From Acaryochloris marina S15 (GTDB lineage: Bacteria; Cyanobacteriota; Cyanobacteriia; Thermosynechococcales; Thermosynechococcaceae): a stretch of DNA of 32,000 nt. The stretch is taken from assembly GCF_018336915.1 (NCBI RefSeq), contig NZ_CP064923.1, forward strand, positions 1,620,001 through 1,652,000, written 5' to 3'. Positions 4,020 to 28,073 of the stretch are shown here, piece after piece. The notes beneath the pieces were generated by a model, which saw only the letters and a program-made list of their open reading frames with translations, was not told where the DNA came from and searched no databases. The first letter of the stretch is position 1. The number at the start of each line of letters is the position of its first letter. A program made the translations under genes and the position numbers.

Positions 4020-4171
4020 TTTGCCAATAATGACCCATTTTTTTCGGATAGCCGTAGAAATATCTAGATTATTTGGCCTGAAATGCTAATCAAAATAGAA
4101 GTTCAATAGTTTTACTGATGCCGAATTGACTGCATTTGAAAGAGCATTGTAGCGTCGCGACACCATGATCC

Positions 4172-13603: not shown

Positions 13604-14815
13604 ATGAGCAATTCTCGACCCTATGACGTTGTTCTCTACGGAGCGAGTGGGTTTACTGGGCGGCAAACGGTTGAATATTTTGCCGAGCATGCGGGTGAGC
13701 AAATCCGATGGGCGATCGCAGGTCGGAATCGCCAAAAACTTGAGCAGGTCAAAGCCGACTGTGCTTCTGCTGCGGATGTCTTAGTAGCCGATAGCCAGGA
13801 CCAGGAAGGACTGGATACCATTGCCGAACAGGCCCACGTCATTCTCAATACTGCCGGTCCCTTCGCCTTATATGGGGATTTGTTGGTGGATGCCTGTGTC
13901 CGTAAGCAAACCCACTACGTCGATATCACTGGCGAAACCCCCTGGGTCAAATCACTCATCCAGCGCTACCATGCCAAAGCCTCAGCGGACGGCACCCGCA
14001 TTATTCCCTTCTGTGGTTTTGATTCAGTACCATCAGACCTGGGTACCTACCTAGTGGTGCGGTTTATGCAGCAGGAATTGGGCGTCTCTTGTCGGCAAGT
14101 TAAAGCTTGCTTCAAAGCTGCAGGCGGCTTTAATGGCGGCACCTTGGCTTCTGCCATCAACTTGATGCAGTCAGGAGAGTCTTCCCAGATGGCGGATCCC
14201 TATTTACTCAATCCCCCGGAAGAGTCCCCCCTCGATATTGCACCCCTGAGCCAAGATCCCAAGGGACCGCAGTATGACTCAGACTTGCAGGTCTGGACGG
14301 CACCTTTTTTCATGGGACCTGTGAATACTCGCGTGGTCAGACGCAGTAGCGCCCTCTTTGATCAATGGCAAGAGTCCTATGGTGCCCATTTTGCCTATCA
14401 AGAATATCTGAAATTTGATGGACCGTTAGCTGCCCTCGGTACCACTTTGGCAACGGGGGTATTTGGATTGGCCTTAAGTCAAGGGTGGGCTAGATCATTG
14501 CTACAGTCTCGACTGCCTCAACCGGGCAGCGGTCCTTCTACTCAGGTGATGGATGAAGGATGGTTCCGTTGTGAATTGATAGGGCAGGCCAGTAATGGCC
14601 AACAGGTGCGGTGCCTGATTCACAATCAAGGCGATCCAGGTAATCGCTCGACGGTGAAGTTTTTATGCGAGTCGGCCTTATGTTTGGCGACTCAGGCTGA
14701 TCAGTTGCCGGGTAAGCAACGCGGTGGTGTGTTGACTCCAGCGACTGGATTAGGCGATGTGCTGGCCGATCGCTTACGCCAGGCAGGGACCACGATTGAG
14801 CTTACAGTTGTCTAG
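13604..14815 (+). CDS. saccharopine dehydrogenase-like NAD(P)-binding oxidoreductase (trans-acting enoyl reductase family)
   Basis: 403-aa ORF with the N-terminal Rossmann motif YDVVLYGASGFTGRQTVEYF. It continues AGRNRQKLEQV, NTAGPF, THYVDITGE and CGFDSVPSDLG. Confidence 0.9.
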   Translation: MSNSRPYDVVLYGASGFTGRQTVEYFAEHAGEQIRWAIAGRNRQKLEQVKADCASAADVLVADSQDQEGLDTIAEQAHVILNTAGPFALYGDLLVDACVRKQTHYVDITGETPWVKSLIQRYHAKASADGTRIIPFCGFDSVPSDLGTYLVVRFMQQELGVSCRQVKACFKAAGGFNGGTLASAINLMQSGESSQMADPYLLNPPEESPLDIAPLSQDPKGPQYDSDLQVWTAPFFMGPVNTRVVRRSSALFDQWQESYGAHFAYQEYLKFDGPLAALGTTLATGVFGLALSQGWARSLLQSRLPQPGSGPSTQVMDEGWFRCELIGQASNGQQVRCLIHNQGDPGNRSTVKFLCESALCLATQADQLPGKQRGGVLTPATGLGDVLADRLRQAGTTIELTVV

Positions 14816-14872
14816 AGAGGCCAGCGAGCTAACGGATGGTTTGGAACCTACCACATTATCTTCAGTAAGGAG

Positions 14873-17800
14873 CTATTTCACCGTGGCCCGGAAACGAATG
14901 GCACCATAAGAAGTGGTGGGAGAGCCTGTGCTGATGGCGTGGGGCAGATTCCCCAGATTGATGACAACTGCGCCGTTATCTTCGGTTTGGGCTGCTGTAC
15001 CGTTACAAGCGGCGGGTAGTGCAGAACCAGGTGGAAAGAACTGAGCAATGTCACCGTCTGCATCGTTGGTATAGGAGAACGTATTACCGTCATACTCCAC
15101 CACCATGCCTCGATTAGCTCCTACACCACCGCTAGGTCCGGGGGGGACGGAGTTAAAGGCATCTGGGACATAAGTTTGGAAGTCGGGCACTTTGTCACAG
15201 AGTTGAACATCAGCAGCATCTATATTTCCGGTTGAGAGGAAGTAAATGGTGTATTCAACTTCATCACCCGGCCGAGTCCGACCGCCATCTGTGCCACCAA
15301 TCAAGAAAGTACTGCTCGCTTTACCGGTGGTATTGGGCCACTTGTCCGTATCGGGTGGTGTTGCAGCTTCGATAGTGTTGTCGTCATAAACATAAGCTTC
15401 TTCCTGCTTATAGGCCGCTAAATTGTCGCCAGCGACACTAGTTGTGCCGCCGTTGACCTTAGTGATCCGCTTAACCAGCAGCAAGTTGGGGTCATAGGGA
15501 GGAATACATGGCGGCAAAGTGAACTCTACGGTATCAATAAAGTTTCCAGCTCTGATGTTGCCGGTGGCGGTAGAGACCGCTCTTAATTCAACCCGGGTGA
15601 CGTACTGCCCCGCCGGAACGGTGTAGGTGCCATTGTAGAGTTTCCATCCTTCGTTGGGGTCGTTGACATCATTGCCAGACGTGAATGTTCCTTGACTGAC
15701 GGTAGCGCCAGGAGGGCCAAGGCGAAACTCCATGGTATCGTTGCCCGTTCGACCCCGGTGAGCAAACTGCCAGCCCATCGCCGCCCCCGGTGTGGTCACC
15801 ACATCCTGAAATAGAGCACCATCTTCTTCGGCGTTGATTTCAGCATGTTGTCCCCCTTCAAAGGCATCAAAGGGAACTTGCCCTCCGCCATGTTGGGATT
15901 GCCATATTTCTATATCATCCAGCGGTGTAGGTGTAGTCGTACCTTCAAAGTTCCAGCCGGGTACATCGGTCTCGTTGTATTGGCGAGCTAAGGTGGGAGC
16001 ACTGCCAAAGGATAGAACTGAGGAGGGTGAACCCTGGGCAATATCTAATAGCTCAAATTCTCCATCGACTAGGCCCGTCACGGCGCAGGCGTTGATATCT
16101 GTGACGGGAGAAGCAATATTGACTTCGTAATCTTCAACTTCTCCATCTGTGGCGGATCCGTCCGGTCCTAGGCCAGTTTGGCTGCCGAAACGGAAGCGAG
16201 CATAGGTTGGACCATGCAAGAGCGTTATATCTGGAATAAAGGAAAGGCTATTATTGCCTGCACTTAAGTTTTCATCATCAAAGATCTGCTCACCTGGATC
16301 ATCAAAGTCACCATCTTGGTTATAGTCAATCCAAGCATTGAGGATGCCAGCTTCGGAGGCGTTAACATCAACGGTGTTGCTAATCCCTGCCTGTACGACA
16401 TGAATGGTATCGGGGAAGCTAAGAGACGGGCTAAAGGTGACTCCATCTTCATCATCGGTACCGTCGCCATCGTCGCCGTCGGCCCCAGCCCCGGCGTCTC
16501 CACCGAGCTGAGTATCCGCTTCGCTATCAGGAGCCGCACTGCCTAGATAAAGCGCGGGCGATATAGTGTGGCTAGCATCGCCGTAGGAATCAGGGGCATC
16601 ACCATAGTCACTAGGTTGAAGATTAATCCCGAAATTAACTCCGCTGACATCAACTGAGTTAACGGTTATGGGGGTAGCACCATTGACGGTACCGTCTCCG
16701 GAGGATGCTGTTCCTTCTCCCGTATTAACCCAACCGGCAGGAAGACTAGCTGCAGGGGCCGTATTCCCTTGTACACCAGCCGTAGTACTAAGCGATACCG
16801 TGTATTGACCGGCCCCAATTGCCTGAAAAGAATAAATACCATTCGATGCAACCGTGGTAGAAGCAACAACATTGCCACTACTATCTACCAAATTTGCAAA
16901 TAGTCCACCCGCATTGGTGCCTGTCCCATTGATTAAGCTATCCGTTAATCCATTGGTATCATCAAAAACTGTTCCCGAAATTGTTACAGGTTCAGCAACA
17001 GACACTCCTCCGAAGAAAAATCTGTCACCCGAATAGGTGGTTGGACTTGACCAAGGACCTGGCTGAGAGTCTCCTCTGACATAAACTCTAAAGGTAAGGG
17101 ACGTAATATTAGTGCCCGTGAACAGGACACTACCACAAGCAGCCCCTGTAGAGCAGGATGAAGTTATGGTAGCCGCAGTGTTTGATATTGTGTTGCCCGT
17201 AACGTCAAAAAAAGCAGACCCAGATAATCTACTGGCGGTAATACCTGGGGTGGCTAGTTCGAATTCGGCTGTATGTCCATGAGCTAATCCGCCTACAACG
17301 CTTGTCCCACCCAAAGCACTTATCTGGATTACTGGATTTGAAACAGGTCGATTAAACGTTACAGTGATGTCCCCATAGTAATATCTACCATTTGTGGATA
17401 GATCAGCGATACGCAAGGGCTCTACCGTTGCAAATAGGTCAAAGGCATAGTTGTCAACTACCGATATTCCTGTCCCTGGCGTGCTATTGGGGCTTGAAGT
17501 GAACATGGAATCGACAGGTGCGCCAAGAGCATTCATCGAACTGAAGACAGACCTTGAGGCCGGCGTAGTACCTGTAGTATTAATCGATGATCCAAATGCT
17601 AATCCGTCTGTATATTGCTGATTCGAGAGAGAAACCGTTATGGAAATATTTGGTGTATAGGGTACAAAAGTATTTCCTGTCGTGTTCTCTTGAAGAGTTG
17701 CTGTGTGCGGTCCTGCACTGGGGCCATTGGGGGGACTCGTGTAACTGCCTACCGAGAATTCTAAATCTCCTGCCAATGCAAATGATGGAAAGATTGTGTC

Positions 17801-17965
17801 AACAATTAAAAAATTGAGCGATATGCTTCCTGCAAGTAGAGGAAGCATCCATAATTTTTGACCCTCAGTCCCTAGTTTTCTTTTAGTCGACACTAGAGAA
17901 ATTTCAGACTGCTTACAGCGAGGAGAAAGCAGTCTTGCTAATTGGTCGAATAATTGCATGGTCAA
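14873..17965 (-). CDS. large secreted mosaic surface protein: N-terminal beta-rich domain, SdrD-B-like domain, GEVED domain, lectin-like beta-sandwich, shared DUF11-like C-terminal domain
   Basis: 1030-aa ORF with a signal-like segment KLWMLPLLAGSISLNFLIVDTIFPSFALA (Met40, ATG 17848, is an alternative start).
- Residues about 327-447: ISGTVFDDTNGL...DSSGNVVASTTVASNGIYSFQAIGAGQYTV (SdrD B-like).
- Residues about 452-616: DYGDAPDSYG...DGDDGDGTDDEDGV...LNAWIDYNQDGDFDDPGE...TYARFRF...DGEVEDYEV (GEVED).
- Residues about 625-816: GW..IEIWQS...FEGGQHAEINAEEDGALFQDVVTTPG..W.FAHRGRTGNDTM (carbohydrate-binding-like).
- Residues 823-1030: homologous to the C-terminus of the 1386-aa protein. Confidence 0.92.
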   Translation of the reverse strand: MTMQLFDQLARLLSPRCKQSEISLVSTKRKLGTEGQKLWMLPLLAGSISLNFLIVDTIFPSFALAGDLEFSVGSYTSPPNGPSAGPHTATLQENTTGNTFVPYTPNISITVSLSNQQYTDGLAFGSSINTTGTTPASRSVFSSMNALGAPVDSMFTSSPNSTPGTGISVVDNYAFDLFATVEPLRIADLSTNGRYYYGDITVTFNRPVSNPVIQISALGGTSVVGGLAHGHTAEFELATPGITASRLSGSAFFDVTGNTISNTAATITSSCSTGAACGSVLFTGTNITSLTFRVYVRGDSQPGPWSSPTTYSGDRFFFGGVSVAEPVTISGTVFDDTNGLTDSLINGTGTNAGGLFANLVDSSGNVVASTTVASNGIYSFQAIGAGQYTVSLSTTAGVQGNTAPAASLPAGWVNTGEGTASSGDGTVNGATPITVNSVDVSGVNFGINLQPSDYGDAPDSYGDASHTISPALYLGSAAPDSEADTQLGGDAGAGADGDDGDGTDDEDGVTFSPSLSFPDTIHVVQAGISNTVDVNASEAGILNAWIDYNQDGDFDDPGEQIFDDENLSAGNNSLSFIPDITLLHGPTYARFRFGSQTGLGPDGSATDGEVEDYEVNIASPVTDINACAVTGLVDGEFELLDIAQGSPSSVLSFGSAPTLARQYNETDVPGWNFEGTTTPTPLDDIEIWQSQHGGGQVPFDAFEGGQHAEINAEEDGALFQDVVTTPGAAMGWQFAHRGRTGNDTMEFRLGPPGATVSQGTFTSGNDVNDPNEGWKLYNGTYTVPAGQYVTRVELRAVSTATGNIRAGNFIDTVEFTLPPCIPPYDPNLLLVKRITKVNGGTTSVAGDNLAAYKQEEAYVYDDNTIEAATPPDTDKWPNTTGKASSTFLIGGTDGGRTRPGDEVEYTIYFLSTGNIDAADVQLCDKVPDFQTYVPDAFNSVPPGPSGGVGANRGMVVEYDGNTFSYTNDADGDIAQFFPPGSALPAACNGTAAQTEDNGAVVINLGNLPHAISTGSPTTSYGAIRFRATVK

Positions 17966-18038
17966 AACTCAAAAATAATAGGAATTTGGTTGGCTGCTGA
18001 TTAAGTATTGGTCAGCAACAGGGTTGAAATTCTTTGTC

Positions 18039-18647
18039 CTAACAGGGCGTTAAAGAATATGGAGAGAGATACCCAAAATGTTGATTAAATATATTTTTGG
18101 CAACAGTTTTTTTAGTTGAAGGCCCAGGTGTTTTCAGCAGTAGTTGATTTTGTAGAGCTGAATGATCTGCTGTTTTACTCGCTGGACTAGGAATACTTCT
18201 GCCAGTGGAAGTGTTCCTAGTCCAGTACAGTCTGGCCCAGAAAATTTGAAATCTAGGGTTATCTGCGGGAAAATTATAGGCCGCGGAGGAAGAGGTGAAG
18301 GCAGTGGCATCACTATCTATATAATCTATCCAGTCAGCATTATTTGTGAGGAGTTTGTTGGTGCCAGTAGTTGTAGTTGTTTGAGCACTATTGCAAGAAC
18401 CTGTTCGGATTCCTAATGTCATTGAACAGGTGATGATGGGGTTCCCAAACATTGTGGTTTTCCCCCGAAGCTGAAAAGGATTACGAGTAGCGAAGGGGCT
18501 TTGATCTTGCACAATAATGGGTGGCAATGCTAAAGACATGGTAGCTGCTGTTACAAAAAAGCTCGATAACAAAGCTTGAGGTCGATGCTGTTTTCTTGGT
18601 TGCTTTCTTACACAGAATACTTTTAGGAAAGGGAAATAGGAGAACAT
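18039..18647 (-). CDS. signal-peptide ORF resembling only the N-terminal module of a large surface protein (possible gene remnant)
   Basis: 202-aa ORF directly upstream of the 1030-aa gene on the same strand. It has a basic plus hydrophobic N-terminus (RKQPRKQHRPQALLSSFFVTAATMSLALPPII). It then reads GKTTMFGNPIITC...C...LLTNNADWIDYIDSDATAFTSSSAAYNFPADNPRFQIFWARLYW. The 3' third is AT-rich and ends abruptly. Confidence 0.55.
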   Translation of the reverse strand: MFSYFPFLKVFCVRKQPRKQHRPQALLSSFFVTAATMSLALPPIIVQDQSPFATRNPFQLRGKTTMFGNPIITCSMTLGIRTGSCNSAQTTTTTGTNKLLTNNADWIDYIDSDATAFTSSSAAYNFPADNPRFQIFWARLYWTRNTSTGRSIPSPASKTADHSALQNQLLLKTPGPSTKKTVAKNIFNQHFGYLSPYSLTPC

Positions 18648-18697
18648 ATTTTTTCTGGGTATAGGATAAAGCGATAACCCAAAAGCTACCGACTGGT

Positions 18698-18736
18698 TGC
18701 TTTACGTTGCTATTTGCGCAATAGCAACGTAAAGCA
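18698..18736. promoter_or_regulatory. perfect 16-bp-arm palindrome upstream of the 202-aa ORF (candidate operator or 5' leader hairpin)
   Basis: TGCTTTACGTTGCTAT (18698-18713), 7-nt centre TTGCGCA, ATAGCAACGTAAAGCA (18721-18736). The arms are perfectly complementary. It lies 51-89 nt upstream of the ATG at 18647. Confidence 0.6.
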
Positions 18737-19666
18737 TACCTAAAATTATTTCTGGTAAAAAAGTGTCTCTAACAGGATGGGTCAAGCACAAGCAAAATCG
18801 ATCATTGATTTCCATGTTTAGTCAATAGGAATAGACTCAATTACTTTGCCCGTACTGTCATGCAAGAAGATTCTAAATCCTGTCATAAATCTATCAAGAT
18901 TGGCATTCATTCCCTTGCTGTAGCTTGGCATAATGGTTAAACAAAGAGAACGCCATTCATCAGTCAAAGCAAAGGATTGAACTGAATGTGAAAAAGTTTT
19001 CTTTTTTTCTGCATGTCTATGAAAACTTATTCTTATGAATATCTTTTTCGATAAAAAATAACTAAATATAATGATGGGCAAAAGCCCCGATAGTATTGTC
19101 TTTGCTTTGATCTGCTAGTTTGTTTTTACAGTAATTTTTACTTTGATAACTTCTTTAATTATTAATCTATTTCAATAATTAGATATTGATTTTAATTCGA
19201 TGCGTTGTAGTCACTATTGATGCGCCATCTACAGCTAGGTAGAAAACTTCTTCCTCATTAGATCTTTTAGATGGCGAATTGCTAACCCTAGGATTTTTGA
19301 TGGGTTCAAGGTAAAAAGACTACCGCGAGATTTTAATTTATCTAGTTAGGAAAAATTTCTTTGGATGCGCACAATCATAAGTATCATCCAGCTCTTTTAG
19401 ATTTATCTTTTTCGGTAGGAATCCTTGCCAAAGGACTTAAAGCTTGGTGTAGGGTCAGTCCTGGTTCTGGGAATACTATTGAAGCGAAATCGGAATATAT
19501 CCTTCTTTACTCCGAATTTCGCAGGTGCAAGTGTCAGATTGACGGGAAAAACAGGGGGAGTTGGACGGATGGTTCAAAATTGCCCTTCTGTACAAGAGAC
19601 TCCATCCAAGGAGCTTTCTCCACCGGTGGATGACGGTAAACCTCTGAACCAAATATTTTTAATTCC

Positions 19667-22600
19667 ATGATGAAACGCATTCGTTTCCCGAAGATAACTT
19701 TTGCCCGCTGGCAAGCTTGGCTGCACGGAATCAACCGTTCGACCAAAAGAGGACTGATCTTGGCCTTCAGCACATTCTTATGTGCTTTAATGGCTCACTT
19801 CGGTCTATTCCATGAGCCAGCAGTCGCGGCACCCAATGCCGACTTAGCCCTGTTGAATGCATTTGTCCCCACAGAGAGTCCTCCAGGCGTTCCCGTCATC
19901 TATCGTTTAACGTTCAACAACAACACCAGTAACCCCGTTAACATCACCAGCCTCAACCATACGTTGCCTGCTGCGCCGGGGAACTTGGTGTTCGATGCGG
20001 CAGCAACCACCAATACCTGTGGCAGTACGGTCAATATCACGACCGGTAGTGCAGGCGGAGGGCCAGGGTCATTTGCCATTACGGGGGGAGCTATTCCCGT
20101 TGGTGCCCCTGGATGTATTATCGAAATTCCAGTTAGGGGCTTTAATGCTGGCAACCATAACGACACCATCCCCGCAGGTGCATTATTTACAGCAGACGGT
20201 GAGAATCCCGATCCCACCGCAGCAACCTTACAAGTGGATGGTTCATCGCCTGCAACCCTTAATAAATCATTTTCTCCCAACACCATTCCTGGAGATGGCC
20301 GCTCGATTGTCACCATCCGCATCAATAACCCCAATGAATATGACCTGACGGGGACAACGGCAACGCCAACCCTAACGGATGATTTGCCCAGCAGCCCCTT
20401 TCAGCTCACAGTCGATACTCGTCCAGGAGCCCCTACTCCCACTACGAACTGTACTGGGGGAACGGTCAATATTAAGCCAGGGGGCACTGGTATTGAATTG
20501 ATCGGTGGCACCCTTCCCAATGAAAGTTTTTGTACCGTTACCTTTCCGGTGACTCAACCTAATGGTGGGACCTATTCCAACAACATTCCTTCCGGTTCTC
20601 TCAGCACAGAGAATCTGGTTAGCAACAGTAACTCCCCTAGCGCAAATTTGAATGTGCAGACCGAAATCTCTATAGCCAAGGTTTTTGGGGCTGGCGGGCG
20701 GGATGAAGGGGAAACCACCAGTTTAGCCATTACGATTACCAATGGCGGTGGACCCCTTACGAATGCCACCCTAACGGATGCTTTACCTGCCCCGATTGTG
20801 GTGGCAGATGTCCCCAATGCGACGACAACTTGTACCCCTAATGGTTCCGAAGCACTCACTGTCACGCCAGGGGCATCCAGTATTACCCTCAATAGTGCTA
20901 ATGTCCCTTCTTCTGCTCAAGTCCCTGGCTCAGATGCGACGACGAATAGCCTGGGATCTTGCACGATCAACCTGACGGTCAAGGTCGATCCAGGCGTCAT
21001 TGGCAATATTGACAACAGCAATGGTTCCTCAGTTACCAACACCATAGCCGCTGGTGACTTAGGAAACGACGAAGGTCGTACCAATGCTGATCCAGTTTCA
21101 GACAGTATTAATGTTCGACCCGCATTGGTGGTGAATAAGGGCTACTCCAACAATGACACCATCTCTCCCGGAAATACTTCTCGGATGACCATTACCGTCC
21201 GAAATAATTCGTTTGCAGTTGGGGCAACAGGAGTGGGCTTCACTGATACCTTACCGGGCAGTTTAGAAATTGCTGATCCACCCAATATTACAAATAGCAA
21301 TTGCGGTTCACCAACCATAACAGGAGCTGCAACTACTAATGTACTTACCTTTAGTGGCGGCACCATTGGTACCAACTCCACTTGTACCGTACAAGTGGAT
21401 GTGTTCTTACCTCTGGGAACGTCAGTCGGCACCAACCTAGATAACGTCATTCCTGACGACTCGATCCTGAATGATCAAGGATTAGATAGCAATGCGGTTA
21501 CGGGGAGTCAAGGCCGCTTAAACGTGGTCGATCGCGTTGAAATCATTAAGTCTTTCAACAGCAGCTCCGTTCGTCGCGGCGTGCCCTCAACCCTAAGCAT
21601 TAGCATTCGCAATAATCGTCGTACTGATACTGGGGTAACGCAGCCACTCACAGGGGTCACGATTTCAGATGATTTAACCACAAACACTCCTGCGGCTAAC
21701 TTGCAGATAGCAACTCCTGCTAACTTTAGCCAAACTGGTTGTGACTTTAGCAGTACACCTATTTTTACAGGAAACACCTCTGGCAGTACATCCTTCAGCA
21801 TGATCAACGGCAGTATTGCCCCTGTCGATGATAGTGATCCAAATGCGGATACCTGTACGATCGAGTTTGATGTTATTGAGATCGCTACGACAAATACTCC
21901 GCCTTTTATCCCTCCTGTGACCTATACCAATACAACATCAGGGTTTAGTAATATTGAAGGTGAACCCGCAACCGAAGATGACGCTGTACTAACGGTCACC
22001 TCTCCCTTAGAAGGCACCAAAACCTTCCAGTCGGCTGAAGTGGTTGCTGGGGGTAAGTCCACGGCAGTCATTGAGTTAACGAATACCTGGGACCAACCCT
22101 TAACCGTTACAACCTTCACAGATACTTGGGCTCAAGCGAATGTCACGGTTGCATCTCCACTGGTGACTAGTTCAACCTGTGGGGGCACCATTACCACGAC
22201 TCCAGGAAGTCAATCAGTCAATTTTGCTGGCGGTGTGGTACCTGCTCAAGTGGGCGGAGTACCTGGCATTTGTACCATTCGATTTGAAGTCGTTATGGAT
22301 GGAACAGGCAGCACCACTTTTGTAAATAGTTTGCCGGCTGGCTCTATCACCACTGCTGAAGGATTTGTGAACCCGGTTGTTGTCGATGGAACTTTAACTC
22401 GGACAACCGCCAATATTAATCTCAATAAATCCTTTAGTCCCCTGAGTATTAGAGTGGGTGATCCGAGTACCTTAACGGTGACAGTGACGAACCCCAATGG
22501 CGGCATCCCCGTCACTCAATTAGGGTTTACGGACACGATGCCTGCCGAGATGGTGGTGTTCTCCGTGCCTAATGCCACGACAACTTGTAGTGATGGCAAT

Positions 22601-23827
22601 AGTGGAACTGCTACCGTCACAGCAACACCCGGTCAAAATACCTTCACTTTGTCGGGGGCAGCCTTAAACCCCAATCAAAGTTGTACCGTTACGGTACGGG
22701 TAACACTATTGGATACCGGCAATACGATTAACCAACTACAGCCGGGGGATGTCTTTAGCCAAGAGAATGTCACCAATAGTGCATTAGCCCAAGCCACTCT
22801 CAATGCCTTGGCAGCTATCACTCCCGGTAAATCCTTTAATCCCACCTCTGTAGAAGGGGGCGAGATTAGCCAGTTAACCTTAACGATTACCAACAACCAG
22901 ACCAATACTGAATCGGGTGAACCGTTATCGAATGTGTCGATTAACGATTCGCTGCCCGCCGATTTATTTGTGGCCAATACCCCAAATGCTTCGACAACCT
23001 GTCCAAGCGGGACCGTAACGGTAACTCCTGGGGGATCTACCGTGCAGATGACCGGGGCAACCCTAGCCCCTGGAGCCAATTGCCAGGTTCAAGTAGATGT
23101 GGTGTCTAGTTTGATGGGGAGCTATCAAAACCGGATTGAACGGGGAGATTTGACGGCTCAAATTCAACCCTCGATTGATCCAATGCCCGGTGGCAACCCT
23201 ACTACCATTCAAAATACGTCTCGACCGACGGCGATCTTAACAGTGAATTCCGATAGATTGCCCCCCGAGATCTTGCTAGTGAAGCGGATTACGGCAGTGA
23301 ATGGAGTCAATGTGACCGGGTTTGAGGATGGTTCCGACGGCGATGATAACGATCCACATTGGCCTTCACCCGTGAGTAACTCATTGCGAGGGGCCTTAAA
23401 TCTATCGACTCCCGTAAAGCCCGGTGATGACTTGGAGTATTCAATTTACTTCTTAAATACAGGGTTATCGGAAGCCTTTAGTTTGACGTTGTGTGATCGC
23501 GTTCCTGACTTCACCACCTATGAGCGAAATACCTACAACAACCAGCCCAATCAAGATCCAGGCGGAATAGCCGGATCTGGACGCGGCATGATGCTAGGTT
23601 TAGGCACAAATGAAGTCTCCCTCACCAATGGGCCGGATGGTGACCAGGGCTATTACTTTGAACCGAATGTCGATCCAATGGTGACTTTACCGAATATCAA
23701 CTGTGATGGGACGAATACCAACGGTGCCGTGGCGGTGCAACTGAGCAGTAATGTTCCCAATGCCACCGCTGCAGGTGTACCTGTGAATTCCTATGGTTAT
23801 ATTCGGTTTACCGCCAAGGTGGACTAG
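19667..23827 (+). CDS. giant secreted repeat protein: eight tandem Cys-pair beta-sandwich-type modules (DUF11/TIGR01451-like) plus the shared C-terminal domain
   Basis: 1386-aa ORF with a signal-like N-terminus (KRGLILAFSTFLCALMAHFGLFHEPAVAAP). Residues about 56-1195 form eight diverged modules of about 135-155 aa. Each follows the pattern K-x-F-x-P...T-x-T-(V/I)-x-N...(F/L)-T-D-x-L-P...T-x-C...G...C-T-(V/I)-x-(V/F)-x-V. Residues 1196-1386 are homologous to the C-terminus of the 1030-aa protein. Confidence 0.92.
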   Translation: MMKRIRFPKITFARWQAWLHGINRSTKRGLILAFSTFLCALMAHFGLFHEPAVAAPNADLALLNAFVPTESPPGVPVIYRLTFNNNTSNPVNITSLNHTLPAAPGNLVFDAAATTNTCGSTVNITTGSAGGGPGSFAITGGAIPVGAPGCIIEIPVRGFNAGNHNDTIPAGALFTADGENPDPTAATLQVDGSSPATLNKSFSPNTIPGDGRSIVTIRINNPNEYDLTGTTATPTLTDDLPSSPFQLTVDTRPGAPTPTTNCTGGTVNIKPGGTGIELIGGTLPNESFCTVTFPVTQPNGGTYSNNIPSGSLSTENLVSNSNSPSANLNVQTEISIAKVFGAGGRDEGETTSLAITITNGGGPLTNATLTDALPAPIVVADVPNATTTCTPNGSEALTVTPGASSITLNSANVPSSAQVPGSDATTNSLGSCTINLTVKVDPGVIGNIDNSNGSSVTNTIAAGDLGNDEGRTNADPVSDSINVRPALVVNKGYSNNDTISPGNTSRMTITVRNNSFAVGATGVGFTDTLPGSLEIADPPNITNSNCGSPTITGAATTNVLTFSGGTIGTNSTCTVQVDVFLPLGTSVGTNLDNVIPDDSILNDQGLDSNAVTGSQGRLNVVDRVEIIKSFNSSSVRRGVPSTLSISIRNNRRTDTGVTQPLTGVTISDDLTTNTPAANLQIATPANFSQTGCDFSSTPIFTGNTSGSTSFSMINGSIAPVDDSDPNADTCTIEFDVIEIATTNTPPFIPPVTYTNTTSGFSNIEGEPATEDDAVLTVTSPLEGTKTFQSAEVVAGGKSTAVIELTNTWDQPLTVTTFTDTWAQANVTVASPLVTSSTCGGTITTTPGSQSVNFAGGVVPAQVGGVPGICTIRFEVVMDGTGSTTFVNSLPAGSITTAEGFVNPVVVDGTLTRTTANINLNKSFSPLSIRVGDPSTLTVTVTNPNGGIPVTQLGFTDTMPAEMVVFSVPNATTTCSDGNSGTATVTATPGQNTFTLSGAALNPNQSCTVTVRVTLLDTGNTINQLQPGDVFSQENVTNSALAQATLNALAAITPGKSFNPTSVEGGEISQLTLTITNNQTNTESGEPLSNVSINDSLPADLFVANTPNASTTCPSGTVTVTPGGSTVQMTGATLAPGANCQVQVDVVSSLMGSYQNRIERGDLTAQIQPSIDPMPGGNPTTIQNTSRPTAILTVNSDRLPPEILLVKRITAVNGVNVTGFEDGSDGDDNDPHWPSPVSNSLRGALNLSTPVKPGDDLEYSIYFLNTGLSEAFSLTLCDRVPDFTTYERNTYNNQPNQDPGGIAGSGRGMMLGLGTNEVSLTNGPDGDQGYYFEPNVDPMVTLPNINCDGTNTNGAVAVQLSSNVPNATAAGVPVNSYGYIRFTAKVD

Positions 23828-23834
23828 AAAAACT

Positions 23835-23872
23835 GTTTCGGGCCAGCGCTGTTCAAGCGCTTGGCCCGAAAC
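23835..23872 (+). terminator. stem-loop immediately after the 1386-aa gene (candidate terminator)
   Basis: GTTTCGGGCCAGCGC (23835-23849), loop TGTTCAA, GCGCTTGGCCCGAAAC (23857-23872). This is a 15-bp stem with one bulged T, starting 8 nt after the stop codon. No clear U-tract follows. Confidence 0.55.
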
Positions 23873-23883
23873 ACTAGTTGTGA

Positions 23884-24276
23884 TTGCTTATGGATTCAAC
23901 AATGAACTATTTTGTAAAACTCTTTTTCCTGGTTGCACTCTCTTTCTCAGTCATTTTTTCCTCTGTAGGGATGGGATATGCCAGTGAAGTTCATCCTTAT
24001 TCTATGTGGCTCAAGCAAGGAGAATCGTTTGACCTCGAACAATATTTGTCGGTCAATGAATCAATGACAGCAGGTTGTAATGAAGACTGTTTTGATGTTG
24101 ATTTAATTTTGTATGACGCAACTAAAAAAGAAGTGGTGTATCAAGATATTGATGCCAATACTAATCCTAAGATTACGGCCCCCTATGATGGTGATTTTGT
24201 AGTCAACCTATCATTGCCAAATTGCTCACTCAGTAGAGGCTGCAAGGTTTGGCTTGACTTGGATGAGGAAGGGTAA
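23884..24276 (+). CDS. small secreted protein, possibly with a pre-peptidase C-terminal (PPC)-like beta-sandwich
   Basis: ORF of about 124-130 aa. The track start is TTG; ATG at 23890 or 23902 is more likely. The signal peptide is MNYFVKLFFLVALSFSVIFSSVGMGYA. The mature part, Y..WLKQGESFDLE...DCFDVDLILYDATKKEVVYQD....ITAPYDGDFVVNLSL, resembles the PPC-domain pattern (DxDLYLYD...G.Y.v.V). The gene is AT-rich. Confidence 0.6.
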   Translation: MLMDSTMNYFVKLFFLVALSFSVIFSSVGMGYASEVHPYSMWLKQGESFDLEQYLSVNESMTAGCNEDCFDVDLILYDATKKEVVYQDIDANTNPKITAPYDGDFVVNLSLPNCSLSRGCKVWLDLDEEG

Positions 24277-24601
24277 ACGAAGCTCTATATTTATCGACTT
24301 AAGGAGTACTTTTTCTAATAACGACAAGAAAAAGGAAGTCTTTCTCTTTATTTTTTCATATTTAAAGAATTATGCTGAAGATTTGTAAATCAAAGACAAA
24401 ATTCAGTAAGTATGGCAAAAATAGTATGTGCGTAGATATGACATCGATTTTGTATGATGCCATGTCTATGAAAGGGGGATTGTAGGTAATGATTGAAATA
24501 CTTTTCTCGGTTGTAATGAAAGTTCCTCAATGATCTGAACTGGGTACACTAAAGTGCAAGCTGAGCATCTCGTTCTACTCCTTTTTTAGCCGAATTTAGC
24601 C

Positions 24602-26512
24602 ATGACACTGAATACGCCTACATCCCCGACGGTGGATTTGCCTTCGAATGAAGAGTCGAAGGGCTTGATTTTGATTGTTGATGATACGCCCCATAACTTG
24701 CAAATCCTGTCCACGGCGTTAACGAAGCAAGGCTATCAGGTGCGAGGGGCAGCCAATGGCTCCATGGCTTTGATTGGGGCCAGAAATATCATGCCCGACT
24801 TGATATTGCTGGATATCAAGATGCCAGAAATGGATGGCTATACGGTGTGTGAGCGATTGAAGTCGGAAGCACAAACCCAAGAGATTCCAGTCGTTTTTAT
24901 TAGTGCCTTAGACGATGCCTTGGATAAGGTCAAAGCCTTTACAGTGGGTGGGGTAGACTATATCACCAAGCCTTTTCAACTGGCTGAGATTTTGGCTCGG
25001 GTGGAAAATCAACTGACCATTGGTCGGTTGCAAAAAGAACAGCGCAAACAAAATGAACGATTACAAGCCGAGGTGCGCGATCGCATTGCTGCCGAAGCCC
25101 AGATTCAAGCCCTCAATGCTGACCTAGAGGAAAGGGTAATCCAGCGGACAGAACGGCTGAATCAAGAAATTGCTGAGCGGGAAAAAGTGCAGCAGCAGTT
25201 GAAATATATGGCGATGCACGATCCACTGACGGATTTGCCTAACCGGACTTTGTTTCTCAACTGCCTAGAAGAAACCCTACAGGAAGCCCAGAGCCATTCT
25301 GATCAATCATTTGCCCTGCTGTTTCTTGATTGCGATCGCTTCAAAGCCATTAACGATTCCTTGGGGCATTTGGTTGGGGACCAGTTTTTAGTTGCGATCG
25401 CAAAACGGTTTCACCGCTGCGTGGGCGATCAGCTCCTCGCCCGCTTAGGGGGCGATGAATTCACCATTTTGCTCAAAAATGTCTCCAGTGAGCAACAGGC
25501 CACGGATGTGGCAGCTGCTATTCAGCGCAGTTTACTAGAGCCCTTCCATATTGGAGACAACGAATTTTTCGTCTCTGCCAGCATTGGCATTGTGATGAGC
25601 AGCCCGGACTATCGACAACCCACAGAGATGTTGCGGGATGCCGATACCGCCATGTATCGGGCCAAAGCCATGGGCAAAGCGCGGCATGTCGTCTTCAATG
25701 CCAGCATGCATGAAGATGTCCAAAGTACTCTCCAACTAGAAACAGACCTCCGTCGGGCCATCGAACGCCAAGAATTTATTCTCAACTATCAGCCCATTGT
25801 GGCCTTAGATACGGGCATGATTACAGGGTTTGAAGCCCTGGTTCGCTGGATTAGCCCGGAATTAGGATTTATCTCTCCTGGGAAATTTATCCCCCTCGCT
25901 GAAGATACGGGTTTAATTATTCCCCTAGGGGAGTGGGTATTGCGGGAAGCTTGTCGCCAGCTGAATGAATGGCAGGCGAATAAGGTGACGGATATTCCCT
26001 TGACCATGAGCGTCAATTTATCCGTTAAACAATTCTCTCAGCCCAACCTGATTGAAACGATTGATCAAATTTTGATCGAGACCCAGCTCCCCGCCGAATG
26101 CTTAAAGCTGGAAATCACTGAAAGCGCCATTATGGAGAATTCCGACTCGGCGGCCAAGATTCTGGAGCAGCTGAGAGACCGTCAGATTTACCTCAGCATT
26201 GATGATTTTGGCACGGGCTATTCTTCCTTGAGTTACCTGCATCGGTTCCCCGTCAATACCTTGAAAGTCGATCGGTCTTTTGTCTGTCGGCTGGATGCTG
26301 CAGACGATAACGTTGCCATTGTTCAAGCCATTGTGACCTTAGCCCAAACCATGGGGATGGATGTCGTCGCCGAAGGGATTGAGACGACTGAACAGCAACT
26401 CCAACTGGCGAACTTAGGGTGTGAATATGGCCAGGGATATCTGTTTTGCAGACCCGTTAATGCTGAGATAGCGAGTGAAATGCTAGCCAGCAAAAATCAC
26501 AAATTGTTCTAG
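24602..26512 (+). CDS. response regulator with c-di-GMP turnover output: REC - coiled coil - GGDEF - EAL
   Basis: 636-aa ORF. REC: ILIVDDTPHN, LILLDIKMPEMDG, FISAL, KPF. The coiled-coil linker is RLQKEQRKQNERLQAEVRDRIAAEAQIQALNADLEERV. GGDEF: LTDLPNR...RLGGDEF, with no RxxD five residues upstream. EAL: EALVRW, KLEITE, DDFGTGYSSLSYL, QGYLF. Confidence 0.93.
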   Translation: MTLNTPTSPTVDLPSNEESKGLILIVDDTPHNLQILSTALTKQGYQVRGAANGSMALIGARNIMPDLILLDIKMPEMDGYTVCERLKSEAQTQEIPVVFISALDDALDKVKAFTVGGVDYITKPFQLAEILARVENQLTIGRLQKEQRKQNERLQAEVRDRIAAEAQIQALNADLEERVIQRTERLNQEIAEREKVQQQLKYMAMHDPLTDLPNRTLFLNCLEETLQEAQSHSDQSFALLFLDCDRFKAINDSLGHLVGDQFLVAIAKRFHRCVGDQLLARLGGDEFTILLKNVSSEQQATDVAAAIQRSLLEPFHIGDNEFFVSASIGIVMSSPDYRQPTEMLRDADTAMYRAKAMGKARHVVFNASMHEDVQSTLQLETDLRRAIERQEFILNYQPIVALDTGMITGFEALVRWISPELGFISPGKFIPLAEDTGLIIPLGEWVLREACRQLNEWQANKVTDIPLTMSVNLSVKQFSQPNLIETIDQILIETQLPAECLKLEITESAIMENSDSAAKILEQLRDRQIYLSIDDFGTGYSSLSYLHRFPVNTLKVDRSFVCRLDAADDNVAIVQAIVTLAQTMGMDVVAEGIETTEQQLQLANLGCEYGQGYLFCRPVNAEIASEMLASKNHKLF

Positions 26513-26594
26513 GTTTTGCCTTGATTTAGGCATTCTTCAACTTTCTCTAGTGCCCGTTGGTTTCGGCTCGGTTGTCAGGTCAATGTAGGCGAAC

Positions 26595-28073
26595 TTAGCG
26601 CCGTTGAAACATGCTGAGGGAAAGAACATAGACATAACCGATCAAAAAGAGTAGCAAAAACGGTAGTGATAAGTAATGGGCATTAACGACTGCTACGCTA
26701 ATGGTCACGAGTAAATACGCCACCATAGATAGTTCCAAGTAGGGAACTAAATTTCTGGCTGCGCGGTATTTTCTGGTCTTCCAGTCTTCTTCATTACTAG
26801 TGACGCCATGCTTGGGCGTGCGGACAAAATCACGTCCCACCCGGAACAGGCCATCATAAACGGCTAGGGATTGATTAATACTGAGTCCAATCCCCACACT
26901 CATTAATAAAAACAAGTTGGAAGCCAATTTCCATGGAGATTGTTTACCCAGTTGCTCTTCTTGAGCCACTGAGTAAAAAGCCAACAGACTCAGGGTGGTG
27001 ACTAGGAATAGGGGGAGATGGATAGCTAGACCATATCGCCAGCCCGTTTGAGCGAGAAAGAGTTGGTAGGGTAAGGATAAGAGAAGCAGGGCTAAGAGCA
27101 GTAGGTAATTAAAGTTATTGGTGAGGTGGAAAAAGGCTTCCACTTTCACATGCCAGGGGGCTTGAGATTTCAGAATAGGCATCAGCAGCTTTTTGGCCAC
27201 TTGGCTGGCGCCTTTAGCCCACCGAAACTGCTGGGATTTAAAGGAATTCATCTCCATGGGCAATTCGGCTGGGACTACAAGATTAGGCAGGTAAACACAG
27301 TCCCACCCTTTGAGTTGTGCTCGATAAGAGAGGTCCAAATCCTCTGTTACGGTCGTATGCTGCCATCCTCCAGCATCTTCGATGGTCTGGATGCGCCAAA
27401 TCCCAGCCGTACCGTTGAAATTAAAAAAACAGCCTGAGCGATTCCGAGAGGTTTGTTCCGTGACAAAGTGCCCATCCAACATTAGGGCTTGGATTTCTGT
27501 GAGGATGGAATAATGGCGGTTAATATGTCCCCAGCGGGCCTGAACCATCCCCACCTTCGGATTCGCGAAATAGTGAACCATGTTGAGTAAGGTATCGGGG
27601 GCTGGCACAAAATCTGCATCGAAGATCATCACCAAATCCCCCGTGGCGGATTGCAGCCCGTAAGCTAGGGCACCTGCTTTATAGCCTTTGCGATCGCACC
27701 GGTGAATATAGTCAATATTGAGGTGGTGCTGCTTTAGCTCTCGCACCTTAGCTCGACAAATCTCCCGCGTTTCATCCGTCGAGTCGTCCAATACCTGAAT
27801 TTGCAGCTTATCAACGGGATACTCCAAGGCGGCAACGGCCTCTAGGAGCCGATCCACCACATACATCTCATTAAACAAAGGGAGCTGAATGGTGACCTGG
27901 GGCAGTTCAGCGTCGGAGAATTGATGTAGCGGCTGAATATCGCGACGACGATGCAGGTAATATCGCCAAATAATCGAAATTTTGTGGAAGCTGTATACGG
28001 CGATCAGCGTCAAAATACCAAGGTATAGTTCAGGAATAACACCTGAAACGCTATCAATGAAACTAATGCCCAT
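26595..28073 (-). CDS. membrane-bound GT2-family glycosyltransferase, CslA-like; candidate monoglucosyldiacylglycerol synthase (MgdA-like)
   Basis: 492-aa ORF with an N-terminal TM helix. GT2 motifs present: VLDDSTD, FDADF, TEDLDLS and QQFRWAKG (QxxRW). Several C-terminal TM helices follow. No PilZ domain is present. The size and topology match my memory of cyanobacterial Sll1377/MgdA-type enzymes; this specific call is unverified. Confidence 0.85.
   Translation of the reverse strand: MGISFIDSVSGVIPELYLGILTLIAVYSFHKISIIWRYYLHRRRDIQPLHQFSDAELPQVTIQLPLFNEMYVVDRLLEAVAALEYPVDKLQIQVLDDSTDETREICRAKVRELKQHHLNIDYIHRCDRKGYKAGALAYGLQSATGDLVMIFDADFVPAPDTLLNMVHYFANPKVGMVQARWGHINRHYSILTEIQALMLDGHFVTEQTSRNRSGCFFNFNGTAGIWRIQTIEDAGGWQHTTVTEDLDLSYRAQLKGWDCVYLPNLVVPAELPMEMNSFKSQQFRWAKGASQVAKKLLMPILKSQAPWHVKVEAFFHLTNNFNYLLLLALLLLSLPYQLFLAQTGWRYGLAIHLPLFLVTTLSLLAFYSVAQEEQLGKQSPWKLASNLFLLMSVGIGLSINQSLAVYDGLFRVGRDFVRTPKHGVTSNEEDWKTRKYRAARNLVPYLELSMVAYLLVTISVAVVNAHYLSLPFLLLFLIGYVYVLSLSMFQRR

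Follow-up and report, generated by a model that had tools for sequence, protein, structure and literature searches.

A strictly C-terminal domain of DUF11/CLIPPER type in two giant, predicted secreted proteins of Acaryochloris marina S15 and its gene linkage to a candidate outer-membrane barrel

The DUF11 domain, lately renamed CLIPPER, has a CnaA-like immunoglobulin-like (Ig-like) fold with an intramolecular Lys-Asn isopeptide bond (PMC12617251, PDB 9IFR), and it is typically found in tandem, as an internal stalk unit of fibrillar adhesins (PMC12617251, Protein Sci 2025). The isopeptide triad of 9IFR consists of K715 and N806 with the catalytic Asp D748 (PMC12617251). In type 11 secretion (Slam/DUF560), a barrel gene lies beside cargo that shares a C-terminal recognition domain (10.1101/2024.09.26.615229). 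Type 9 secretion (T9SS) is, according to the literature, confined to Bacteroidota. Here we describe a locus of the cyanobacterium Acaryochloris marina S15, within a 32,000-nucleotide stretch of contig NZ_CP064923.1 (positions 1,620,001 to 1,652,000; the whole stretch is called the window and coordinates are numbered from its first letter). Two giant genes, the left one encoding 1030 aa on the minus strand (14873-17965) and the right one 1386 aa on the plus strand (19667-23827), share a C-terminal domain (CTD) which appears to be homologous in its core to CLIPPER. The tandem, internal placement of CLIPPER domains was not found for the CTD, of which each protein has a single copy, invariably C-terminal.

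By BLASTP, residues 826-1030 of the left protein (14876-15490, minus strand) and 1200-1386 of the right protein (23264-23824, plus strand) are 38% identical (E=1e-27), and the bodies in front of them cannot be aligned. This agrees with the first-pass annotation, made from the letters of the window, which had described two unrelated bodies with matching C-termini. The two segments score 255 and 208 bits, respectively, against a profile of the CTD, with both matches ending at the last residue. Each giant protein terminates one residue after the last conserved block, as had also been noticed. The domain is about 205 aa long and runs to the stop codon. Within the window proteins the profile matches only this terminal domain; the internal DUF7933/DUF11 repeats score below 0.

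A word-indexed protein search with the 205-aa CTD as query returned only proteins of 346 aa or less and missed the 1030- and 1386-aa proteins of the window itself. The positional statistics were therefore taken from an exhaustive search with a 16-sequence CTD profile (A1). In the word-indexed search the CTD reaches the last residue in 48 of 48 proteins, which show the pattern '...SYGFIRFRAKVK' and then a stop. The exhaustive search gave 7120 cluster representatives at E<=1e-3, including 1167 at E<=1e-30, and the best 150 of the 7120 were used to determine position. The whole profile is matched by 117 of these 150, and every one of the 117 matches stops within 0-3 residues of the C-terminus, while 105 run right up to it. 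Their host proteins span 208-2266 aa (median 1088). The remaining 33 representatives are giant DUF11-repeat proteins with partial profile matches only, 14-37 per protein, the best stretch lying mostly within CTD profile positions of about 45 to 120. The CTD is thus a distinct, strictly C-terminal domain family. That it might simply be an ordinary internal DUF11 repeat with no positional preference was examined and does not hold, because the internal repeats of the window proteins score below 0 and the full-length matches are all terminal; repeats match the core only. The passengers fused to the CTD are diverse (GEVED, SdrD_B, DUF7933, DUF11, beta-helix and others), and 181 of 213 family members have a signal-like N-terminus by a crude hydropathy test.

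Over 237 distinct CTDs, residues K7, R8, T10, Y83, C98, D99, C162 and G196 are 100% conserved, W51 and F200 are conserved at 99% and D147 at 98%. The invariant Cys pair, C98/C162, suggests a disulfide and hence an extracytoplasmic location. From its alignments the CTD appears to be a derived DUF11/CLIPPER Ig-like domain. Comparison of the CTD alignment with canonical repeats and 9IFR by hhalign gave a probability of 97% over CTD residues 60-138, and TIGR01451 matches residues 899-935 of the 1030-aa protein, inside the CTD, at 28 bits against a cutoff of 24. PF01345 has no match in the 1030-aa protein, where DUF7507/CLIPPER_2 is also sub-threshold (17.9 vs 27), and its best listed stretch in the 1386-aa protein is internal (917-1025). 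Both ends of the CTD carry additions that are absent from canonical repeats. The N-terminal one, of about 58 residues, comprises a long strand 'LLVKRIT', a disordered loop and a near-invariant Trp, and the C-terminal one is about 65 residues long. In the 'CDxVP' motif the invariant Asp (D99) falls on the catalytic-Asp motif of 9IFR. For the canonical Lys column the counterpart is, at low confidence, the invariant Gly G65, while the invariant K7 is on the extra N-terminal strand, and no Asn is fully conserved (N142 86%, N172 90%). Mapping of the isopeptide triad onto the CTD was abandoned, as the catalytic Asp alone can be placed and the Lys and Asn equivalences are ambiguous. The notion of the CTD as a CLIPPER domain cut before the Asn strand was also dropped, hhalign placing the canonical later strands ambiguously.

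The AlphaFold 2 (AF2) model of the CTD is a compact nine-strand beta-sandwich (pLDDT 79, pTM 0.80). Foldseek with this model gave no significant PDB neighbour, the weak top matches being Gram-positive pilin backbones and CBM3, and a PDB sequence search with the CTD profile returned nothing even at E<=10. The CTD as such is not covered by any model in Pfam (2025 copy) or NCBIfam (June 2026). The profile searches of the four proteins of the locus, suggested beforehand along with a structure prediction of the shared domain, found GEVED and DUF11 domains.

CTD loci were collected with one genome per species, giving 515, and the best 76 of these were inspected taxonomically. They come from cyanobacteria of many orders, with a few from metagenome-assembled genomes (MAGs) that are likely to be misbinned; the hosts include Acaryochloris, Thermosynechococcaceae, Nostocales, Leptolyngbyaceae, Chamaesiphon, Pseudanabaenaceae and others. 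So far the family has been seen in no other phylum. Arrays of two to four CTD genes, mostly tandem, occur in 34 of 75 loci. Clustering of the neighbouring open reading frames (ORFs) revealed a conserved same-strand cassette upstream of CTD genes. It is made up of F5 (about 800 aa, DUF7925), F7 (about 188 aa, a single DUF11-like domain with a predicted signal peptide), F3 (about 510 aa, DUF11 plus SdrD_B) and F1 (about 1250 aa, two Ig-like domains plus a giant beta-barrel in the model). F4 (about 540-770 aa, a beta-helix) is often present but optional. Cassette genes are found in 34 of the 75 CTD-selected loci and are visibly absent in 15, the remaining 26 giving no call. As a reciprocal test, F1 homologues were picked independently of the CTD. 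Downstream and on the same strand, a CTD gene is present at all four F1 loci from large contigs and at 45 of 52 metagenome loci with usable flank. The gap has a median of 676 bp, and in three of the seven exceptional cases the gene runs off the contig. The reading frames of F3 and F1 share 1-4 bp, and those of F1 and F4, where F4 exists, share 4 bp, which suggests that F3, F1 and F4 are translationally coupled. Two related Acaryochloris genomes (L002, L004) have F3, F1 and F4 beside other CTD genes, and a locus of the window type in another assembly (L010) is without all three.

Transposase-like genes recur within and after cassettes and CTD arrays in Nostocales. They are found between F1/F4 and CTD genes in L012, L018, L027, L032, L038, L048 and L073, and downstream of CTD arrays in L001, L012-L014, L019, L020, L022, L027-L030 and L032. 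One recurrent type, of about 205 aa, is tentatively assigned to the REP-associated Y1 type (a single faint Y1_Tnp match, in L001), and the other is a 284-aa PDDEXK_2 gene. These genes are possible agents of shuffling at CTD loci. In Rivularia, 163-aa fragments related to F5 (DUF7925) lie between tandem CTD genes (L001/L020, 6742-7233; L014, 6448-6939), and so provide further evidence of recombination and decay in those arrays. A divergently encoded multi-pass membrane protein of about 200 aa (cluster F12) is present in L036, L046, L050, L051, L063 and L076, where it adjoins CTD arrays without a cassette or directly follows a CTD gene. Its placement may reflect synteny among related MAGs or an alternative partner. 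A full cassette with a CTD gene was also found on the 1.2-Mb megaplasmid of Kovacikia minuta (CP083583; L079, 14088-16691). The CTD of that locus loses homology about 30 residues before its end, as a truncated variant or through a frameshift.

F1 is highly conserved, with about 60% identity across orders and more than 1500 homologues, which NCBI often names 'TonB-dependent receptor' or 'Ig-like domain-containing protein'. The representative matched no Pfam or NCBIfam family, only weak matches to Invasin_D3, DUF2490 and GH2_C5 being obtained. An AF2 model from 45 sequences (pLDDT 70, pTM 0.51) begins with a disordered stretch, followed by a pair of Ig-like domains and then by some 40 long antiparallel strands, which continue to residue 1130 or so. 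The top Foldseek matches are Deinococcus SlpA, SprA of the T9SS, LptD and the FimD usher, all of them large outer-membrane barrels, with E values of 1e-9 to 1e-6 and TM-scores of 0.15-0.25. Since the model is moderate and the TM-scores lie in this range, the modelling supports only the class, ie a large outer-membrane barrel, and no specific family.

With moderate confidence, and on the basis of genomic context, we read the giant genes as encoding Sec-exported, adhesin-like cargo which the CTD couples to the F1 machinery. The cargo would cross the inner membrane via Sec and fold in the periplasm, where the disulfide would form. An F1 complex would recognise it through the CTD, the last strand of which would need to be free, and would either export it through the barrel or hold it at the surface. 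Satellite loci such as the window would supply extra cargo in trans to an F1 machine encoded elsewhere. We infer from gene context both a surface location of the CTD proteins and a physical or functional interaction between CTD and F1. The first-pass annotation had suggested that the shared domain may be an anchoring or export tag; the terminal position, the diverse passengers and the linkage to a giant barrel gene fit that suggestion. A larger claim can be put forward only tentatively, and we hold it with somewhat less than even confidence: that the CTD and F5-F7-F3-F1 form an undescribed cyanobacterial route by which folded, Sec-exported proteins are moved across, or anchored at, the outer membrane. 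The window genes would then be satellite cargo diversified by cassette-like recombination. More speculatively, the CTD may be a rewired isopeptide-type domain whose invariant Lys/Asp bonds covalently in trans, with a partner subunit or an anchor, and not inside the domain itself.

Several points weigh against coupling of the cargo to F1. The link between CTD and F1 is one of gene order alone, and it is not universal, about 30% of the determinable CTD loci having no cassette within 10 kb and four F1 loci being truly without a downstream CTD gene. No cassette gene is present within the 32-kb window, and the F1 of this genome was not seen there, so that the window itself looks like a satellite cargo locus without the machine. 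The F1 model and its Foldseek TM-scores are of the moderate quality given above, the CTD model is without a significant PDB neighbour, and the name 'TonB-dependent receptor' would point to import, not export. Neither an energy source nor a partner in the inner membrane was identified.

The cassette-free CTD loci would also suit a different role for the CTD, that of a structural or ligand-binding module at the end of fibrillar adhesins, directed for example at a carbohydrate, a sheath or the cell's own polysaccharide. Export would then take another route, and the cassette would merely be co-regulated in a surface-structure operon. The CTD apparently derives from CLIPPER/DUF11 domains, which are normally adhesin-stalk domains (PMC12617251); its weak Foldseek matches include CBM3 carbohydrate-binding modules, and its conserved aromatics and DGD motif could bind a ligand or Ca2+. 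We nevertheless regard this explanation as unlikely. A binding or stalk role leaves unexplained both the terminal position of all 117 full-length matches and the CTD gene downstream of 45 of 52 F1 loci, and no other outer-membrane export path is evident for these Sec-type proteins.

The single DUF11-like domain of F7 is related to the CTD core (E~1e-7), and the F5, F7 and CTD proteins all end exactly on an amphipathic strand with a basic or Asn residue. Two-domain adhesins of chaperone-usher systems carry a pilin domain at the C-terminus, and the FimD usher is among the fold matches of F1. Together these features could describe an usher-like fibre, in which the CTD would be a pilin-like polymerisation domain, F7 the major subunit, F1 the platform, and the CTD and DUF7925 proteins tip or decorating adhesins. 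We think such a fibre quite improbable. Neither Usher (PF00577) nor a PapD-like chaperone (PF00345) was detected in F1, F3, F4, F5 or F7 by Pfam and NCBIfam, the CTD model is a compact and complete sandwich with no obvious missing strand, and the FimD match to F1 is weaker than those to SlpA, SprA and LptD.

It is very improbable that F1 is a TonB-dependent or SusC-type uptake barrel with the CTD proteins as its surface capture partners and not its cargo. The NCBI name of many F1 homologues points that way, as does the TonB-dependent transporter FauA among the fold matches, and SusC-type transporters also carry N-terminal Ig-like domains. However, no Plug (PF07715) or TonB_dep_Rec (PF00593) match was found in the F1 representative with Pfam and NCBIfam, the barrel has about 40 long strands vs the 22 of a TonB-dependent transporter, and the best fold matches are SlpA, SprA and LptD.

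The left protein, read here as F1-coupled cargo, consists of a signal-like N-terminus, an N-terminal domain without a family, an SdrD_B-like region (sub-threshold in Pfam), a GEVED domain and the CTD. The GEVED domain occupies residues 542-616 (16118-16342, minus strand; Pfam PF20009, 59 bits vs a cutoff of 24.4, E 7.7e-16). Signal peptides were judged by hydropathy and by alignment to homologues. In the left protein the predicted signal-peptide-like segment covers residues 28-65 approximately, ending FALA/GDLEF (17771-17884, minus strand), and it aligns with the N-termini of the homologues P0140 (AIA/ANELEF) and P0159 (TLA/GELEF); we infer a signal-peptide function for these proteins. The 1030-aa gene is judged to be intact because, over residues 11-633 and 823-1030, its product runs colinearly with P0140, a full-length homologue. 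Its best protein match is in Acaryochloris sp. 'Moss Beach', with 96% identity. That orthologue (P0001, HRE53_20475) is annotated as only 301 aa, starting at a point equivalent to about residue 730 of the window protein, and may be disrupted in Moss Beach.

The 202-aa ORF upstream of the left gene (18039-18647, minus strand) had been taken for an independent small secreted protein, and this does not stand. Intact CTD proteins of 819-1166 aa align with it through their signal peptide and N-terminal module, matches by tblastn and alignment being found in the 819-aa protein of L010 (53% identity), the 832-aa protein of L004, P0066 and P0071. The homology ends at about residue 182 and is followed by divergence and a stop. 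In sister strains there is a single ORF, of 819, 821, 1144 or 1157 aa, in place of the 202-aa ORF and the left gene. The 202-aa ORF is therefore, from these alignments, the diverged and truncated 5' remnant of a displaced CTD gene. In the closest sister, L082, blastn aligned window positions 13688-16615 and 18144-27000. Identity falls from 100% at the start of the right gene to about 85% in the spacer and 60-70% across the 202-aa ORF, is absent for 1.5 kb and returns to 92% from 16615 downwards. The tract without a counterpart, 16616-18143, replaces L082 2919-4219, and it marks the recombination or replacement which made the present left gene and stranded the 202-aa ORF. As the tract is replaced and the 1030-aa ORF has an N-terminus of its own, a passenger from another type of CTD gene has recombined in. 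The left gene is thus an intact chimera, and the locus a recombination hotspot. The 202- and 1030-aa ORFs were also considered as one frameshifted gene; this was rejected, given the separate N-terminus of the 1030-aa ORF (compare P0140 and P0159) and the replaced 1.5-kb tract.

A module following the signal peptide, 'RN(Y/F)SPRF..RGRTTIFGN..TTCS...YVDIDSDxSTFNSSS...IVWAGLYW', recurs in many CTD proteins. It is carried by the 202-aa ORF, the 819-aa protein of L010, the 832-aa protein of L004, P0066, P0071 and a 327-aa protein of L008. No Pfam family matches it, and it may be the functional head of one class of cargo.

The right protein has a signal-like N-terminus, eight DUF7933 stretches (1.6e-109) and DUF11 (5.7e-10), both from Pfam, and the CTD. 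At this position other Acaryochloris assemblies have orthologues of 1381-1394 aa. Synteny of the locus extends to six other Acaryochloris assemblies (L010, L082, L083, L084, L086 and, with one gene fewer, L007), the shared order being saccharopine dehydrogenase, the left CTD gene on the minus strand, a spacer of about 1.1 kb, the right CTD gene of about 1385 aa on the plus strand, a gene of 123-126 aa, REC-GGDEF-EAL and GT2. Between strains it is the left gene that varies, the right and small genes being stable. The right-gene orthologue of the most distant sister strain (L084 5881-9931, L085 412-4552) is broken into pieces of 385/415 aa and 963 aa, reflecting a frameshift, a pseudogene or an assembly error.

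The small ORF downstream of the right gene, listed as 130 aa (23884-24276, plus strand), had been noted as encoding a signal peptide, and it is a genuine small protein, conserved and predicted to be secreted. There are nine clusters of homologues (59-98% identity); their gene calls span 100-126 aa, and six have 123-124 aa. The true start is probably Met7, at 23902, which would give 124 aa and place the listed start six codons early. Conservation is seen in the mature part, with four Cys invariant, and the predicted signal peptide varies. Homologues are restricted to the genus Acaryochloris, and in L082, L083, L086, L084 and L010 the gene always lies downstream of the gene of about 1385 aa. L007 (Acaryochloris sp. 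IP29b_bin.176) has the GGDEF-EAL gene beside a single, 754-aa CTD gene. Both the gene of about 1385 aa and the small ORF are absent there, and the two therefore behave as one insertion/deletion unit.

The REC-GGDEF-EAL gene (24602-26512, plus strand; Pfam Response_reg, GGDEF and EAL) is the next gene downstream, as annotated at first pass, and is syntenic in all Acaryochloris loci examined. Adjacency of a GGDEF-EAL gene to CTD genes was not found outside the genus among the CTD loci examined; a neighbour cluster of other loci, 'F2', was considered as an equivalent and proved to consist of unrelated sensor kinases. Cyclic di-GMP (c-di-GMP) commonly controls adhesins in other bacteria, and the order right gene, small ORF, GGDEF-EAL is kept in six Acaryochloris assemblies, but the first-pass proposal of a self-contained four-protein aggregation module, here under control of the adjacent enzyme, deserves hardly any credence, since one of the four members is a gene remnant, the conserved partners of the CTD family lie outside the locus, with the cassette missing from the window and placed elsewhere in the L002 and L004 genomes, the adjacency is confined to Acaryochloris, and L007 keeps the GGDEF-EAL gene with the right gene and small ORF gone.

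All four ORFs are present in the ORF list at the positions and lengths first reported. The giant genes diverge from an ORF-free, AT-rich spacer of 1019 bp (18648-19666), a putative promoter region with a GC content of 0.363 vs 0.482 for the window, and a spacer of similar size, about 1.1 kb, separates the two CTD genes in sister strains. The combined share of Thr, Asn, Gly and Ser is 38% in the left giant protein and 42% in the right one; both the divergent arrangement and this composition had been described correctly. Within the spacer, 18698-18736 is an inverted repeat whose 17-nt arms match perfectly around a 5-nt loop, TGCTTTACGTTGCTATT TGCGC AATAGCAACGTAAAGCA, approximately 50 bp upstream of the start of the 202-aa ORF. 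An imperfect copy is present in L084, the repeat is not conserved in L082 or L086, and it could be an operator, a terminator or a chance occurrence.

Genes of an ordinary chromosomal kind flank the locus. One side has saccharopine dehydrogenase, RecG and an FHA-GAF-GGDEF-EAL protein, and the other has REC-GGDEF-EAL, a GT2 glycosyltransferase and a Ser/Thr kinase. Signalling genes are abundant in the window (2049-6868 and 24602-26512), with an MscS-DEP channel protein, the FHA-GAF-GGDEF-EAL protein and REC-GGDEF-EAL, and the two c-di-GMP enzymes are less than 20 kb apart. No transporter, sortase or protease family was detected in 14.8-24.3 kb by Pfam and NCBIfam scans, as had been stated. The accompanying statement on glycosyltransferases needs the qualification that the GT2 gene (492 aa, 26595-28073, minus strand) is just outside, directly past the GGDEF-EAL gene; it is syntenic in all sister strains. 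An Rfam scan of the window gave zero matches. The HIP1-free interval reported around the locus is real, with sites at 13712 and 25077, but a gap of this length is not beyond chance, having P~0.095 for 11 random sites, the number found in the 32 kb. For that reason it was given no weight, and as a sign of foreign origin it was dropped, the locus also being syntenic across Acaryochloris strains.

To our knowledge, the placement of large proteins on or beyond the cyanobacterial outer membrane is poorly understood, and we know of few routes besides type IV pili, TolC-type export and PEP-CTERM/exosortase. The present analysis adds a signature by which cargo can be recognised, namely a terminal domain of 205 residues in which the KRIT, EYxIYF, CD and C motifs are invariant, and a candidate machine, the conserved barrel of about 1250 aa with three or four partners, both of which occur across many cyanobacterial orders. 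If the proposed coupling is correct, surface proteomes, including adhesion, biofilm, mat and symbiosis factors, would become predictable from sequence, and the CTD might serve as a display or secretion tag in cyanobacterial biotechnology. It would also mean that the isopeptide-type fold of CLIPPER/DUF11 has been re-used as a terminal module.

Full-text literature searches gave no description of this CTD or of the cassette. PEP-CTERM, LPXTG and GlyGly-CTERM signals were not found, there being no C-terminal hydrophobic helix in either giant protein; both end in '...SYG(A/Y)IRF(R/T)A(T/K)V(K/D)', an amphipathic beta-strand. The proteins do not resemble type 1 RTX adhesins, with no HemolysinCabind match in Pfam and with signal-like N-termini, or autotransporters, with no Pfam match and a nine-strand sandwich, not a barrel, as the CTD model. 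The CT (tubular) pili of Microcystis were rejected as a related system on account of a different fold and a different gene cluster, and likewise the GhpA/GhlA grappling-hook DUF11 filaments, which are giant tandem-repeat proteins of another architecture.

Chaperone-usher systems (FimH/PapG with FimD/PapC) are similar in having a variable N-terminal part joined to a conserved C-terminal Ig-like domain, and an outer-membrane barrel with periplasmic Ig-like domains beside small Ig-fold subunits, FimD being among the F1 matches. They differ in that no Usher- or PapD-type matches were found, F1 is modelled with about 40 strands against 24, and the CTD is modelled as a complete fold and not as a strand-deficient pilin. 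In type 11 secretion an outer-membrane barrel gene likewise adjoins cargo with a conserved C-terminal domain, but the barrel is of another family, the cargo domain is a beta-barrel, the system is proteobacterial, and no homology was detected. With CLIPPER proteins the CTD shares an apparently homologous core, the catalytic-Asp motif and hosts that are long repetitive surface proteins, whereas it is single and strictly terminal, carries N- and C-terminal additions and is not detected by PF01345.

The T9SS models TIGR04183 and TIGR04131 gave no match in the four window proteins (NCBIfam, E<=0.1), and PorK/L/M/N, SprA and PorU/V were not seen in 160 related loci, no whole-genome search having been made. 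The CTD is twice as long as its T9SS counterpart and appears to be CLIPPER-derived, there is no sequence homology between the two, and no genes for PorK/L/M/N, PorU or PorV were seen in the cassette. The likeness is one of architecture. In both cases predicted or known Sec cargo ends in an extreme C-terminal Ig-like beta-sandwich, as an analogy only, with diverse passengers and many cargo genes per genome, and the T9SS also has a very large single-chain outer-membrane barrel, SprA, which is among the top fold matches of F1. By the tests run, the core of the CTD appears to belong to the known CLIPPER/DUF11 superfamily and not to be homologous to the T9SS, chaperone-usher or type 11 systems; if the CTD and its cassette do form a new route, its path would be analogous, and not homologous, to type 9 secretion.

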